Virus record (IMG/VR): IMGVR_UViG_3300032335_000208
Span: 1-33,439 of that record
From: a virus
Taxonomy: Duplodnaviria; Caudoviricetes
Length of the DNA stretch: 33,439 bases
Reading direction: 5' to 3' (one strand)
Positions within the stretch are counted from its first letter, which is position 1. The number at the start of each line of letters is the position of its first letter. The position numbers and the translations under genes are program-made. Shown here one piece after another: positions 9,829 through 14,638 of the stretch. The notes under the pieces were generated by a model that worked only from the letters and a program-made list of their open reading frames with translations, had not been told where the DNA came from and searched no databases.

Positions 9829-10109
9829 CCGAGCAAGACTTAGCATTTTTAGAAGCCAACATAATTAACTTTGAGGCAGTGTCTTTAGGGTTTACTCGAA
9901 ACATTGACCGAGATGTGCTTGAAGAATATGCAGTTATTTATCGTAAATATTTGAATAAAGATTTTATATTAAATTCGTGGTGTGGAAATTGTGTATTTGA
10001 TATGCTTAAAAGATTGTCAGCACATTACGAAGGATTAAAGTATATTGAAAAACTCAACCAACCAAAACCAAACGATGTCCAAACTAAGAATTTGCGCAGT
10101 CGGAAGTAG
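9825..10109 (+). CDS. Hypothetical protein with CxxC motif
   Basis: WCGNCV motif; coupled ORF. Confidence 0.7.
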   Translation: MTEQDLAFLEANIINFEAVSLGFTRNIDRDVLEEYAVIYRKYLNKDFILNSWCGNCVFDMLKRLSAHYEGLKYIEKLNQPKPNDVQTKNLRSRK

Positions 10110-11091
10110 ACATTCGGGAGTCACTTACCATCGCCTTGCGTTACCATTGTCAGTGATGAAAAAGGAGTATTGTATTATCACGGATACAATGACCGAAGAG
10201 ATGCTGATTGAGAAGCAGATAAACGTGGTCGTAGTCAATCGATTTTGTGAATTGATACCATTGCCCGATTTATTAAAATGGAAGGCTAAGTTAGGCTTTA
10301 AATTGGTTGTCGATATTGATGACTATTGGGAGTTATTTTCTCAGCATTTATCTGCGCCAACCTATCGGTCATTAGGAGTCACAAGAATAATCAAGACTTA
10401 TATTCAAGTGGCTGATGTGGTTACTACAACTCACAACCGATTACGGCTTGAGATCATTAAGATAAATCCTAATTGCTTTATTCTGCCGAATGCTTTGCCA
10501 TTTGACCGTGACCAATTTACTGCGGTAAGAAATGTAAACGAATTTGTTAACATTGCGCACACGGGTAGCATTACTCACTTTCCTGACATGAGGCAATTGA
10601 AGAATCCGATTAGAGAATTAGCCAAGTCTAAATCGTTTAAGGAGTCTACACGCATGCTTCTTTGTGGGTGGAATAAAGCAAACGAGTTTCATTGGAAGCA
10701 AATGGCTGATTGGTTTACTGCTGGAGAAAGATTAAACCACAAGATTCTTGAATCGATGCCCGTAGATTTATATATGAATTTCTACCTGGAGGCTGACATA
10801 TTACTTGCTCCATTATTAGATAATAAATTTAACCGATTAAAATCCAATTTAAAGGCACTTGAGGCTGGCGCTAAACGGATTCCCTTGATGGCAATTAAAC
10901 GAGCGCCTTACGATGACATTCCAACGGTGTGCTGGGTAGACAATTGGGAACGAGATATTAAAAGAATGGTATTCTCAAAGCAAATGAGAACGGATTTTGG
11001 CGAGTCAAATGCTGAATATGTGCGTGAGCATTACGATTTATTTAAAATTAATGAGGATAGATTTGCTATTTATTCTAAACTAATAGAATAA
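10075..11091 (+). CDS. Glycosyltransferase (GT-B, family 4-like)
   Basis: SGVTYHRL, VVDIDDYW, ADVVTTT, DILLAPL..NKFNRLKSNLKALEAG. Confidence 0.85.
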   Translation: MSKLRICAVGSRHSGVTYHRLALPLSVMKKEYCIITDTMTEEMLIEKQINVVVVNRFCELIPLPDLLKWKAKLGFKLVVDIDDYWELFSQHLSAPTYRSLGVTRIIKTYIQVADVVTTTHNRLRLEIIKINPNCFILPNALPFDRDQFTAVRNVNEFVNIAHTGSITHFPDMRQLKNPIRELAKSKSFKESTRMLLCGWNKANEFHWKQMADWFTAGERLNHKILESMPVDLYMNFYLEADILLAPLLDNKFNRLKSNLKALEAGAKRIPLMAIKRAPYDDIPTVCWVDNWERDIKRMVFSKQMRTDFGESNAEYVREHYDLFKINEDRFAIYSKLIE

Positions 11092-11828
11092 TGCCAGTTA
11101 TAAAATGTTCAAACGAAAAATGGCGCATCGGTAATGGCGCTTGTATTTATGAAACGGAAGAAAAAGCAACTGAAGTTTGGAAGGCTATATTGGCAAGCGG
11201 AGAATACCGAGCGGATATTAATAAGGTTTCTTTTGATTTCGATGACACGTTGTCTACGGCAAGAGGTCAAGAGATTGCGAAAAGGAATATCTTGCAAGGC
11301 AAAGAAGTCTATATCATAACAAGGCGAAACGAATATAATTCTTCAGAGGTTTATCGAATAGCTGAAAGATTAAGAATACCAAAGTCAAGGGTTTATTTTA
11401 CTAATGGTCAATACAAATGGATGTTAATTAAGCGATTGGGAATTGGCACACATTATGATAATAACCAAACCGAGATTGACTTAATAAAAATAAATACGGA
11501 TACTAAAGCAATGAAGTTTGCTTTTGTTGATAGTTATAACGACTATCCTGAGTCAGCGGTTAACAATGCCAAGAGAGCGTTAAAATATGTTGAAGAAAAT
11601 GGTTGGGGAAGTTGCGGAACTCCAGTAGGAAAAGTAAGAGCAAATCAATTAGCAAATAGGGAAAATATTACAAGAGATACGATTGCAAGAATGGCTTCGT
11701 TTAAAAGGCATCAGCAAAGTAAAGATGTTCCTTATGGGAAAGGATGCGGAGGCTTAATGTGGGATTGTTGGGGAGGTACTGAAGGTATTGAATGGGCAAT
11801 AAGAAAATTAGAGCAAATCGATAATTAA
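11091..11828 (+). CDS. Multidomain protein: HAD-like domain plus C-terminal phage head-associated domain
   Basis: FDFDDTL, IITRR and HYDNN (HAD motifs); C-terminal YNDYP...GTPVGKVRANQLA...WGG..G.EWA. Confidence 0.6.
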   Translation: MPVIKCSNEKWRIGNGACIYETEEKATEVWKAILASGEYRADINKVSFDFDDTLSTARGQEIAKRNILQGKEVYIITRRNEYNSSEVYRIAERLRIPKSRVYFTNGQYKWMLIKRLGIGTHYDNNQTEIDLIKINTDTKAMKFAFVDSYNDYPESAVNNAKRALKYVEENGWGSCGTPVGKVRANQLANRENITRDTIARMASFKRHQQSKDVPYGKGCGGLMWDCWGGTEGIEWAIRKLEQIDN

Positions 11829-11836
11829 AAATAAAT

Positions 11837-12484
11837 ATGAATAACTTTTATCATAGTGGCGCTACTGGTGATGTAATTTATTCTTTGCCCACTATTAAGG
11901 CATTAGGCGGAGGTATTTTTAATGTACAATTACCCGACCATTTGTATGACACAATTTTGCCATTATTGGAATCTCAGGAATATATTCACGAAGTTAAAAA
12001 AGGCAGAGAATTGACTGGTACAATATATAATTTAGATTTATTCCGTTCAAATATAGATTTACATTTAACTCATTTAGTACAATTGCATTTGCAAAGTTTT
12101 CAGATTATAGATGAAACTTGGAAACAAGGATGGTTAAAAGTTGAGCCAATAAAATCAAATAATAGTTTTATTAATATAACTCCAAGATATAAATCTTTAA
12201 TTACGGATTGGATTAAAGAAATTAATTTTTTAAAAGACAATTCAGATAATGTTTATTTCATTGGTTTAGAATCTGAATATGAGCCGTATAAACATTTAAT
12301 TGAAAGGTATGTAATTAAAGATTATTTAGAATTGGCTCAATTACAATTAGGTGCAAAATATGTTAGTGGCAATCAATCAAGTTTTATGGCAGTTGCTCAA
12401 GGAATTGGTAGAGATTATAGAATGAGCCAAGCTGAAGGGCATACAAATTGCAATCAATTTTTACCAAAAGAAACAATAATATGA
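11837..12484 (+). CDS. Glycosyltransferase family 9-like protein
   Basis: HSGATGDVIYSLPTIKAL and DYLELAQL..GAKYVSGNQSS resemble heptosyltransferase motifs. Confidence 0.6.
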   Translation: MNNFYHSGATGDVIYSLPTIKALGGGIFNVQLPDHLYDTILPLLESQEYIHEVKKGRELTGTIYNLDLFRSNIDLHLTHLVQLHLQSFQIIDETWKQGWLKVEPIKSNNSFINITPRYKSLITDWIKEINFLKDNSDNVYFIGLESEYEPYKHLIERYVIKDYLELAQLQLGAKYVSGNQSSFMAVAQGIGRDYRMSQAEGHTNCNQFLPKETII

Positions 12485-13017
12485 GCCGTGTAAGCGACAA
12501 AGAATTTTTTGATATTGAAGTACAAAACGGAATAACTCCCGAGAATCCTGATTATTATAATTTGATGGATGCAACGGCTGACATAATTATCGAATATGCT
12601 AAAGACATAATCGAGATAGGTGCTGGCATGGGTACGCTTGGAGAATGCTTGCAAAAGAAAGGAGTTAATTATTATGGCATTGAGCCTAATAAATATCATC
12701 AAGAATTTGCTTATAAAAGAGGAGTTATATTACAAGAGATTACTGATTATCCCGACCATTGTCAAATGGTTGTTAGCATTGAAGTAATGGAGCATTTAAC
12801 CGATGAGCAAATCAAGGATTATATGAACAATATAAATTGTCAATATTTTTTATTTTCATCAACTCCTTATTACACAACTCCTGAGCAAGATGAGGCTTGG
12901 GGTCATATAAATATTAAGTCCGAAGAAAAGTGGATTGAGTTCTTTGCTCAATTTGGATTTAGCTTAGAAAAGAAATTAACTTTACCGACCGAGTGGTCAT
13001 TACTATTTAAAAAATGA
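12481..13017 (+). CDS. Class I SAM-dependent methyltransferase
   Basis: IIEIGAGMG motif I, VVSIEVMEHL, GHINIK; ATGA overlap. Confidence 0.85.
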   Translation: MSRVSDKEFFDIEVQNGITPENPDYYNLMDATADIIIEYAKDIIEIGAGMGTLGECLQKKGVNYYGIEPNKYHQEFAYKRGVILQEITDYPDHCQMVVSIEVMEHLTDEQIKDYMNNINCQYFLFSSTPYYTTPEQDEAWGHINIKSEEKWIEFFAQFGFSLEKKLTLPTEWSLLFKK

Positions 13018-13553
13018 ATATCACAACAACCAAACTGACCGACATAAAGTCGAATCCAAACAATCCAAGAATAATCAAGGATGACAAATTTAAAAAGTTG
13101 GTAGCATCAATTAAGGAATTTCCTCAGATGCTATCCTTAAGACCTATTGTCGTAAATGATGATATGATAGTGCTTGGTGGCAATATGCGATTGAAGGCTT
13201 GCAAGGAAGCTGGACTAAAAGAAGTACCTATAATAAAAGCAAGTGATTTAAACGAGGACCAACAAAAGGCATTTATTATTAAAGATAATGTTGGGTACGG
13301 AGAGTGGGATTGGGATATGCTTGCAAACGAATGGGATGCTGAAGAATTAGTTGAGTGGGGATTAGATATACCAAATTTTGTAATTGAGCCTGATGCAGAT
13401 GAATTGATTGGAGAAGATAAAAACAATCCAGCTACAATGAAAATAACTTTTGAAAGTGTAGAGCAATTACAACAAGCCGAAAATGATATTAGAGAATTAA
13501 TTGATAGGAAATATAAAGGGGCTTATTTTTCAGTTTCAGCAGGCGAAATATGA
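13014..13553 (+). CDS. ParB/Sulfiredoxin N-terminal domain protein
   Basis: NPNNPR, RPIVV, LGGNMRLKA, IKDN..GEWD motifs. Confidence 0.88.
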   Translation: MNITTTKLTDIKSNPNNPRIIKDDKFKKLVASIKEFPQMLSLRPIVVNDDMIVLGGNMRLKACKEAGLKEVPIIKASDLNEDQQKAFIIKDNVGYGEWDWDMLANEWDAEELVEWGLDIPNFVIEPDADELIGEDKNNPATMKITFESVEQLQQAENDIRELIDRKYKGAYFSVSAGEI

Positions 13554-14152
13554 GATTAGAAAAAGCATCAAATAAAGCGATTAAATTTGCTTGTTTAAAT
13601 TACCATTATGCAAAAGCAGTACCTACTTATTCAATAGGATATTCGGTTTTTAATAATAATAATGATTTTTGCGGAGTGGTTTTATTTGGAGGTGGCGCTT
13701 CAGTTAATATGCCAACAAAATTTAATTTAAGAAATGGTCAATATTTAGAATTAAATAGAATGGCTTTAAATGGAAAACAATCTTCTACAAGTAAGGTTTT
13801 ATCTATTGCAATTAAACTAATAAAAAAAGAATGTCCAACCGTAAAAATGTTATTTAGTTATGCAGACAAAGGACAAAATCATAATGGGATTATTTATCAA
13901 GCAACGAATTGGATTTATATAGAAAATATTGAAAGTAGTGGAACTGAATATTTTTTAAATGGAACTTGGAAACATGATAGAGGAAGATATAATTGGGCAA
14001 TCGATTTTAAAACATTACCCAAAAGAAAAAAGGCTGGCAAACATAAATATGTTTACCCATTAGATAAAAGTTTAATTGAAATTTGTAATAATTTAAAAAA
14101 ACCTTTTCCTAAAAATTTGAGCGATAAGGTAGAATCGAACTCCCCTTCTTGA
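13550..14152 (+). CDS. mom: Mom-family adenine modification enzyme (GNAT fold)
   Basis: NYHY, GVVLFG, LELNRMAL, SYAD..QNHNGIIYQATNWIY, KHKYVYPL and PFPK motifs characteristic of Mu Mom homologues. Confidence 0.85.
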   Translation: MRLEKASNKAIKFACLNYHYAKAVPTYSIGYSVFNNNNDFCGVVLFGGGASVNMPTKFNLRNGQYLELNRMALNGKQSSTSKVLSIAIKLIKKECPTVKMLFSYADKGQNHNGIIYQATNWIYIENIESSGTEYFLNGTWKHDRGRYNWAIDFKTLPKRKKAGKHKYVYPLDKSLIEICNNLKKPFPKNLSDKVESNSPS

Positions 14153-14189
14153 CTGGTTGCCAAGTGTGCTACCATTACACTATTATCGC
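14120..14189 (-). tRNA. Non-canonical tRNA-Gly-like RNA (anticodon position ACC)
   Basis: Minus strand GCGATAA TA GTGT AATGGTA GCAC A CTTGG CAACCAG TCAAG AAG GGGAG TTCGATT CTACC TTATCGC T: full cloverleaf, U73, A33 instead of U33, G.A mismatch in T-stem, CCA not encoded. Confidence 0.85.
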
Positions 14190-14198
14190 ATTGATTAC

Positions 14199-14227
14199 CA
14201 AATATATAAAAAAATATGTAAAACAAA
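14199..14227 (-). promoter_or_regulatory. Bacteroidota-type promoter driving the tRNA-like gene
   Basis: Minus strand TTTG (14227-14224), 17-nt spacer, TATATTTG (14206-14199), ending 9 nt before tRNA G1. Confidence 0.7.
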
Positions 14228-14638
14228 ATGGCAAATGAACAAAATTTAGTAAGTTTCAAGAAAGGTCAATCAGGCAATCCAAATGGTCGACCAAAGAAGT
14301 ACGTTACTTTGTTAAAAGAATCGGGTTATAATATGACCGAGATTGGTATTACAATTCGTAAAATGCTTGCTATGAATATTGAACAACTTAAAGAGATATT
14401 TGATAATCCTGAAAGTTCAATATTAGAAAAGACAATCGCTGGGGCAATGAATAAATCTTTAAAGAACGGTTCATTATATTCAATAGAAACTTTATTAAGT
14501 AGAGTATTTGGAAAGCCTAAAGAATCGGCTGATATAAAACAAGATACTGAAATAACTATAAAATTTGCCAATGGAGATTATCCTACCGACTCCACACGAG
14601 GCGCAGAAAAAAGTATTACAGAGCAAGGCGAGGTTTAG
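14228..14638 (+). CDS. terS: Terminase small subunit (DUF5681-like N-terminus)
   Basis: FKKGQSGNPNGRPK motif; immediately upstream of the large subunit. Confidence 0.8.
   Translation: MANEQNLVSFKKGQSGNPNGRPKKYVTLLKESGYNMTEIGITIRKMLAMNIEQLKEIFDNPESSILEKTIAGAMNKSLKNGSLYSIETLLSRVFGKPKESADIKQDTEITIKFANGDYPTDSTRGAEKSITEQGEV

Follow-up and report, generated by a model that had tools for sequence, protein, structure and literature searches.

The mom locus

The window analysed here is a DNA of 33,439 nucleotides from a virus of the Caudoviricetes (IMG/VR record IMGVR_UViG_3300032335_000208) and represents a whole phage genome, with direct terminal repeats and a completeness of 100%. Its mom gene (13550..14152, plus strand) shares its last 33 nt with a tRNA-Gly-like RNA encoded on the opposite strand (14120..14189, minus strand). 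The RNA carries a bulged A in its T-stem (14130), two pairs from the acceptor/T junction. Nine nucleotides upstream of its first base, G1, lies the sequence TATATTTG (14199..14206, minus strand), a match to the Bacteroidota -7 box (TAnnTTTG) and the predicted promoter of the RNA, which sits within the 38-nt gap preceding the likely terminase small subunit gene (terS). A run of five U directly 3' of the RNA (14111..14115, minus strand) is a possible transcript end, although conserved mom lysine codons spell the same letters. As set out below, the genetic link between mom and the RNA recurs in many phages and extends over two Mom subfamilies. The cassette that they form is real and conserved and is likely to be functional; the RNA probably serves as a host-charged glycyl donor for Mom that evades elongation factor Tu (EF-Tu).

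The same arrangement of mom and RNA is found on two other contigs (L001 and L002), and in a separate freshwater run one contig spans parB, mom and the sequence into the RNA; the locus is therefore not an assembly artefact. The sequencing runs that hold parts of the phage genome are mostly freshwater metagenomes. The TAnnTTTG promoter box and the presence of related genes in Bacteroidota genomes suggest, by inference, that the host belongs to this phylum.

The Mom protein

The open reading frame (ORF) of mom encodes a 200-aa protein that is a Mom-family GNAT, as had been proposed in the initial annotation of this DNA. It matches the Pfam Mom profile PF25680 (E 1.2e-33, 116.9 bits against a cut-off of 27.1), PHROG 1384 (E 8e-46) and the sequence of Mu Mom (8bv8, E 8e-12), and its structural model, with a predicted local distance difference test score of 86.4, has 8bv8 as its best Foldseek match (E 4e-12, TM score 0.75) and other GNATs next at 1e-5. 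In the alignment the Mu residues H58, Y59, R111, S124, D149, Y159 and W181 correspond to H19, Y20, R70, S81, D106, Y116 and W140, and R70, S81 and D106, the equivalents of the catalytic R111, S124 and D149, are invariant among 44 homologues. Mu W48 aligns to K9. Residues 190-200, which are encoded by the reverse complement of the RNA, are predicted to be disordered and are modelled with low confidence. Mu Mom transfers glycine from Gly-tRNAGly to the N6 of adenine (Silva et al. 2026, PMC13219725), which bears out the donor that the initial annotation had named. By homology, the phage protein is predicted to be an adenine glycyl-transferase that forms N6-carbamoylmethyl-deoxyadenosine (6-NcmdA) in double-stranded DNA from Gly-tRNAGly.

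The tRNA-Gly-like RNA and its family

ARAGORN identifies the RNA as a tRNA-Gly(ACC) at 14119-14189 on the minus strand, and Rfam scores it at 40.4 bits with RF00005 (gathering score 29), the sole RF00005 match in the complete genome. The fold of the minus strand has a z-score of -2.39 (1 of 200 shuffles is as good), that of the plus strand one of -0.83. G1 is at 14189, the acceptor stem is formed by 14183-14189 and 14121-14127, the D-stem by 14177-14180 and 14166-14169, the anticodon stem by 14160-14164 and 14148-14152 and the T-stem by 14140-14143 and 14128-14132; the variable loop occupies 14144-14147, U73 is at 14120 and C74 at 14119, and CCA is not encoded. The initial annotation had described this cloverleaf as the only tRNA-like element of the DNA, with G1-C72, C2-G71, G3-C70, U73, C35 and C36, an A at position 33, the anticodon loop CAACCAG and the T-loop TTCGA, all of which are present. 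Its account of the T-stem and variable region was right in naming a bulged A as one option, while its other option, a G.A mismatch at 51-63, and its 3-nt variable region did not hold: the T-stem has 4 bp and the bulge, in place of the uninterrupted 5-bp T-stem of canonical tRNA-Gly, and the variable loop has 4 nt (AAGG). The mismatch was rejected on the family alignment, in which the canonical register pairs in 61.6% of cases and leaves 51-63 unpaired in 48 of 49 sequences, whereas the bulge register pairs in 100%.

This alignment comprises the window RNA and 48 homologues, so that 49 of the roughly 60 distinct sequences are represented. Pairing is seen in 98.2% of 735 cells of the acceptor, D and T stems, against at most 53% in slid controls, and the stem covariation that had been suggested as a check is evident as two-sided changes at 11 of 15 acceptor, D and T pairs and at all five anticodon-stem pairs. 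Ten bases are invariant (G1, C2, G3, G10, C35, C36, C70, G71, C72 and U73), of which G1, C2, G71, C72 and U73 had been required for extraction, a filter that lost none of the 80 close loci; in an independent set found with the family model G1-C2-G3 and U73 occur in 65 of 65. The glycyl-tRNA synthetase (GlyRS) determinants G1-C72, C2-G71, U73, C35, C36 and G10-Y25 are present in the family, and the invariant set matches the bacterial GlyRS determinants as reported (PMC9976931).

The RNAs were compared with 26 distinct Bacteroidota tRNA-Gly genes, the best model matches in 121 genomes. The T-stem bulge is present in 59 of 60 distinct mom-anchored RNAs and in 65 of 65 distinct RNAs of the second Mom subfamily, versus none of the 26 host genes. 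U33 is kept in 35 of the 60 and lost in 25, and a 7-nt anticodon loop is kept in 36, the other 24 having loops of 8 or 6 nt, whereas both features are found in 26/26 host genes. The anticodons are TCC in 47, ACC in 12 and CCC in one, with ACC in 0/26 host genes. None of the 26 encodes CCA. Pairs 49-65, 50-64 and 51-63 set the affinity for EF-Tu (PMC3239215), as the initial annotation had stated, and 24 of 26 host genes have G49.U65 and 25 have C50-G64, both listed as tight pairs (PMC3239215, Table 2). The family departs from this tight T-stem in that its bulge falls within the 49-65/50-64/51-63 region. In the window the anticodon ACC (14155..14157, minus strand) and A33 (14158) contrast with the U33 and GCC, UCC or CCC anticodon of canonical tRNA-Gly, and had been counted among the features that break translation. 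While the retention of glycine identity and the decay of U33, loop and T-stem held across the family, ACC and A33 did not generalise: C35 and C36 are invariant, bases 34 and 33 are free, and the family signature is the bulged A. Selection therefore retains the cloverleaf and the GlyRS determinants and fixes the T-stem bulge, while the decoding features drift.

These comparisons bear on the possibility that the RNA is a working translational tRNA-Gly, which either refills a pool drained by Mom or replaces tRNA cut by defence nucleases. Such a role would account for the link to mom and suits both the predominance of TCC and the copy of Microbacterium phage MenE, which has a canonical T-stem and an encoded CCA. 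It is nevertheless unlikely given the bulge fixed at the EF-Tu site, the aberrant anticodon loops, the loss of U33 and the shrunken D-arms of some copies. Gly-tRNA(ACC) is reported to be functional in E. coli, yet it is the one universally absent four-fold ANN tRNA and is harmful when overexpressed (bioRxiv 10.64898/2026.05.15.725136). Tuning of base 34 to codon use was considered and rejected, the use of GGU+GGC being equal in ACC and TCC loci (0.485 vs 0.490, p 0.72), which speaks against a decoding role as well. The copies with a strongly shrunken D-arm (L183, L188, L207, L237, L243 and L246), which retain the CC anticodon bases, the bulge and an encoded CCA, are the most clearly non-ribosomal members.

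ARAGORN at default settings missed the RNA in 12 of 21 loci (one of these cut off), and Rfam missed it in 9 of 11 non-phiEf11 loci tried (two, L024 and L025, carry none). A strict canonical T-arm pattern gave 6 matches in 101 loci, because the T-stem is bulged, and was replaced by a relaxed pattern; three matches of the latter (L091, L093 and L094) have no cloverleaf and no model match and were dropped as chance.

Coupling of the RNA to mom

The enrichment of tRNA-Gly-like RNA next to mom homologues, which the initial annotation had made a test of its proposal, is found in both search directions. The mom-first set comprises 101 loci including the window, of which one is cut off and 100 are usable. 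The RNA is present at the mom 3' end in 91 of these (84 from the first relaxed pattern, 6 from a second pass and L098 from the model), where 0.03 per locus is expected by chance, and in all 80 close viral contigs. The nine mom loci that lack it are those of phiEf11, two Listeria phages and six prokaryote genomes. In a second Mom subfamily, 28% identical to the first, the RNA occurs in 80/80 loci, 45 antisense and 35 sense, some of which share contigs with the second of two RNA-first sets. The RNA-first sets were collected with two patterns blind to mom, 120 loci each from about 760 and about 240 stretches estimated in IMG/VR. Where full 900-nt flanks are available a Mom match is found in 66 of 67 and 68 of 68 (134/135 together); with cut or 300-nt flanks included the figures are 93 and 94 of 120. 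In the first of these sets the RNA is 3' of mom in 41 loci and 5' in 25. The occurrence of the RNA on either side of mom, in sense or antisense, shows that the link outlasts rearrangement. A remote Mom-like GNAT (PHROG 1384, E 5e-5) is the neighbour in one further locus (L185:17-553).

A third set was anchored on the terminase. Of 80 such loci, 64 with at least 2.4 kb upstream were counted and 16, which carry neither element, were dropped; among the 64, three have both mom and RNA, 61 have neither and none is discordant. In one relative (L107) the terS is 99% identical to that of the window, and a distant Mom of 28% identity stands beside an almost identical antisense RNA. The slot between parB and terS is exchangeable (L101, L104, L106, L114, L153, L177 and L179) and is filled in relatives by a fusion of ParB with a methyltransferase, by two paired C5 methylases or by an ABC-type ATPase-GNAT fusion, the last with no tRNA-like RNA adjoining it.

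Orientation and predicted transcription

With the three chance matches dropped, the mom-first set contains 61 sense and 29 antisense RNA copies. TAnnTTTG is the -7 element of Flavobacterium and Bacteroides (PMC7641319). Of 21 distinct sequences upstream of antisense copies, 15 contain it 7-12 nt ahead of G1 (background 1.1%), versus none of 42 sense sequences within 3-20 nt upstream. In the second subfamily the box is present at 32 of 36 antisense copies, and at 13 of 31 sense ones. Among mom-overlapping sense copies the box lies inside the mom frame about 33 nt upstream in 14 of 29, compared with 0 of 20 antisense copies. Genome-wide TAnnTTTG is not enriched (59 occurrences vs 51.7 expected), so that only its position matters. 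Host tRNA-Gly genes are a weak positive control, with the box in 6 of 32, many of them lying inside operons. A sigma-70 scan returned 9 sites where 6.9 are expected, and one weak terminator-like site (14057-14036) vs 0.4 expected. Of 20 antisense copies, 19 are followed by a T-run and 7 by a hairpin with T-run; mom lysine codons spell part of the T-run.

Since antisense copies carry the Bacteroidota promoter box, the RNA is likely to be a free-standing transcript and not part of the mom mRNA, and since an antisense copy cannot belong to the mom message, the RNA most likely acts in trans. The opposite-strand copies with their own promoter box thus separate the role of the RNA from the mom message. 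One RNA run yielded two 151-nt contigs at depth 2 that lie inside mom, and none on the RNA; such contigs show neither strand nor level.

The overlap with the last mom codons in most close relatives, and the complementarity to the final 33 nt in the window, could also be understood if the RNA acted in cis on mom, by marking the mRNA for RNase P or tRNA-like processing or by regulating its 3' end as an antisense element. This is very unlikely, as the fold is unchanged whether the RNA is sense or antisense and on either side of mom, antisense copies come with a promoter box of their own, many sense copies keep the in-frame box, and neither role needs C35-C36 or the bulge. In several sense copies (L005-L010, L035-L038 and others) the mom frame reads through the whole RNA to give proteins of about 214 aa. 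Excision of the RNA from such copies would deprive the mom message of its stop codon, a possible feedback on the level of Mom.

On a quick Mom tree, used for the orientation counts, orientation changes 9 times, and at least 7 of these changes are forced by strong branches. The 4-bp T-stem is common to nearly all antisense copies, so a small number of inversions, carried further by recombination, would explain the pattern just as well as many separate ones. Phages often integrate at tRNA genes. Together with the repeated changes of orientation, this lends some colour to the idea of a DNA relic, an attachment site or a captured host tRNA gene that decays while hitch-hiking beside mom. The covariation, with two-sided stem changes in all four arms, largely refutes such a relic; the bulge is fixed and absent from host genes, the RNA is retained where a 28%-identical Mom replaces mom (L107), profile searches found no integrase among the window proteins scanned, and no inverted repeats flank the RNA, so that this explanation is extremely improbable.

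A probable glycyl donor for Mom

The favoured reading, in which the RNA is probably a glycyl donor charged by the host and withheld from EF-Tu, can be laid out as a pathway. The RNA would be transcribed from its own opposite-strand TAnnTTTG promoter, host enzymes would trim its 5' end and add CCA, and host GlyRS would charge it with glycine. The bulge in the 49-65/50-64/51-63 region would then weaken EF-Tu binding and create a free pool of glycyl-RNA, from which Mom, by homology to its Mu counterpart, would transfer the glycyl group to the N6 of adenine in double-stranded DNA, with rearrangement to 6-NcmdA. On new phage DNA this modification would block host restriction enzymes. The 2026 Mu paper gives no settled answer as to how co-option of the pool used in translation is tolerated, and points to late expression (PMC13219725). 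Mom and EF-Tu are necessarily rivals for charged glycine tRNA, and a private donor that evades EF-Tu would answer this question of tolerance. A broader version holds that this is a widespread two-part viral system, in which a DNA-hypermodifying enzyme is paired with a dedicated non-ribosomal tRNA cofactor that is transcribed separately, that the bulge both shields this cofactor from EF-Tu and lets Mom recognise it, and that these Mom subfamilies depend on their RNA; it is offered tentatively, at a little under even chances.

The fixed acceptor end, the Mom-specific bulge and the coupling itself would also be explained if the RNA mimicked a tRNA and bound Mom, as a decoy or as a brake on Mom toxicity or timing. 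Mom probably recognises the tRNA by its 3' acceptor end (PMC13219725), and Mu, which is without the RNA, controls Mom tightly via Com. A decoy is quite unlikely, however, as the GlyRS determinants C35 and C36 are invariant despite their distance from the acceptor end, and the RNA would itself become a Mom substrate on being charged.

Several observations weigh against a donor role. Mu Mom is reported to accept all three E. coli tRNAGly isoacceptors, and its R151 is essential in vivo (PMC13219725), whereas the equivalent position in phage Mom is G108; the adjoining invariant K107 may stand in for R151, or perhaps dependence on an RNA of its own explains the missing arginine. The family model has no match in the whole Mu genome, nor near mom in phiEf11, LP-114, A511, P12002L, JD024, Vegas, AS-szw and E21, and the RNA was not found at 6 of 15 prokaryote-genome mom loci and at one of two further ones. 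The RNA is accordingly optional and not required by all Mom enzymes. One bulged RNA (L191) lies between glycosyltransferase-like and terS-like genes with no Mom match in 900 nt. Copies without the bulge exist in Arthrobacter phages Wyborn and JKerns (sense) and in MenE (antisense), the last with a tight canonical T-stem, and the tRNA-Gly of Vibrio phage Seahorse has no mom within 1.5 kb. The GlyRS of Bacteroidota is of the same dimeric type as that of T. thermophilus. The latter enzyme also reads C50-G64 (PMC9976931), so that charging could be poor because this pair is mostly absent from the family. The EF-Tu tables give no value for a bulge (PMC3239215). Lastly, the loci are related and redundant and their counts are not independent events; the strength of the coupling is that it holds up in different Mom subfamilies, at different positions, on both strands and in more than one host phylum.

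Among cultured phages, the Wyborn (L023:2583-2655) and JKerns (L309:2095-2167) copies are unannotated tRNA-Gly-like RNAs that lie across the mom stop codon. These unbulged copies have the weak EF-Tu pairs G50.U64 and, read by eye, A51-U63, and G50.U64, which occurs in the Wyborn copy, is the weakest pair of the EF-Tu table (PMC3239215). MenE (L303:2151-2225) and nine related records show an independent layout of parB, mom and antisense tRNA-Gly(CCC) in cultured actinophages. Wyborn, JKerns and MenE could serve as harmless model phages in culture. The Seahorse RNA (L308:1494-1566) is a tRNA-Gly(TCC) within a tRNA cluster and has a 4-bp T-stem with an unpaired A at the junction. A blastn search of cultured phages with the RNA found no bulged form; its matches in Atu_ph07, RsoM2USA, XM05 and Lak-A1 are ordinary or unrelated tRNAs with no Mom match within 1.5 kb and were set aside. 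Among 401 Bacteroidota genomes searched with Pfam, only three Mom genes were found, one of them with the RNA.

Neighbouring genes

Profile searches give the gene order glycosyltransferase, S-adenosylmethionine (SAM) methyltransferase, ParB-N, mom, DUF5681 and terminase large subunit. The gene for the ParB N-terminal domain (13014..13553, plus strand) is the upstream partner of the DNA-modification slot, and the DUF5681 gene (14228..14638, plus strand), which precedes the terminase large subunit and forms the downstream boundary of the slot, is likely to be terS. Upstream of parB, positions 10045-13017 hold a glycosyltransferase (PHROG 7162), two genes of unknown function and the SAM methyltransferase, possibly a second modification cluster that is retained in relatives without mom.

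Comparison with known systems

Phage Mom belongs to the same family (PF25680) and has the same fold as Mu Mom (PDB 8BV8), with 31% identity over 147 aa and the equivalents of R111, S124 and D149 kept, and glycine tRNA is the predicted donor for the phage enzyme too. The two differ in that Mu has no comparable RNA gene and its Mom works with any host isoacceptor, that R151 and W48 are not kept here, and that parB lies upstream of mom where Mu has com. Mu Mom rejects Gly-tRNAAla (PMC13219725). The available text of that paper mentions no phage-encoded tRNA, nor do two of its supplementary files (the first supplementary file excepted), and the available text of the Mom preprint mentions no phage tRNA-like RNA. 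A search of literature outside subscription journals found no report that connects a phage tRNA-like RNA with the activity of Mom. If the broader version of the donor reading is true, the RNA would be the first case of an RNA cosubstrate for DNA modification that a virus encodes, present in hundreds of phage genomes as a pseudo-tRNA. A private donor that evades EF-Tu would give phage 'pseudo-tRNAs' a role outside translation and reveal a natural single-base way to route a charged tRNA away from the ribosome.

A pseudo-tRNA at mom has been recorded before. McMurdie et al. 2011 (PMC3146451) describe a 'pseudo-tRNA' in the mom homologue of the ssrA islands of Dehalococcoides and used it as a primer site. 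These islands resemble the phage locus in that parB and mom occur together with a conserved tRNA-Gly-like locus (anticodon DCC), which is probably of the same RNA family, matched by its description and not by sequence. They differ in that this locus falls inside mom as annotated, within its first 150 bp, and belongs to an integrative island, and the available text of the paper gives the co-location no function. In Microbacterium phages MenE, Appa and relatives, parB-mom is likewise followed by an opposite-strand tRNA-Gly(CCC), beside a gene annotated as 'acetyltransferase'; this RNA, however, has a canonical T-stem, a G7.A66 mismatch in place of the bulge and an encoded CCA, and is annotated as an ordinary tRNA.

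The donor reading is patterned on Staphylococcus, whose use of EF-Tu-evading tRNA-Gly in peptidoglycan synthesis the initial annotation had rightly pointed out. EF-Tu-GTP inhibits FmhB by sequestering Gly-tRNA, and the non-proteogenic tRNAGly species NP1-NP3, the donors for FmhB, FemA and FemB, escape EF-Tu (PMC7826273). They too have a tRNAGly body with an altered T-stem, and the phage RNA may resemble them further in being charged by GlyRS, in binding EF-Tu weakly and in serving a non-translational glycyl transferase of GNAT fold. The staphylococcal RNAs are chromosomal, owe their weak EF-Tu binding to A-U pairs and act in peptidoglycan synthesis (PMC7826273), whereas the phage RNA is viral and bulged, its gene is linked to that of its enzyme, and its role would be in DNA modification. 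It has G-C pairs and the bulge where they have A49-U65, U50-A64 and A51-U63, its partner is Mom and not a Fem protein, and it falls outside their lineage, so that it may work like a Fem-type non-proteogenic tRNAGly though it is not one of them. The cassette thus joins two known things, Mom chemistry and non-proteogenic tRNAGly, in one viral unit.

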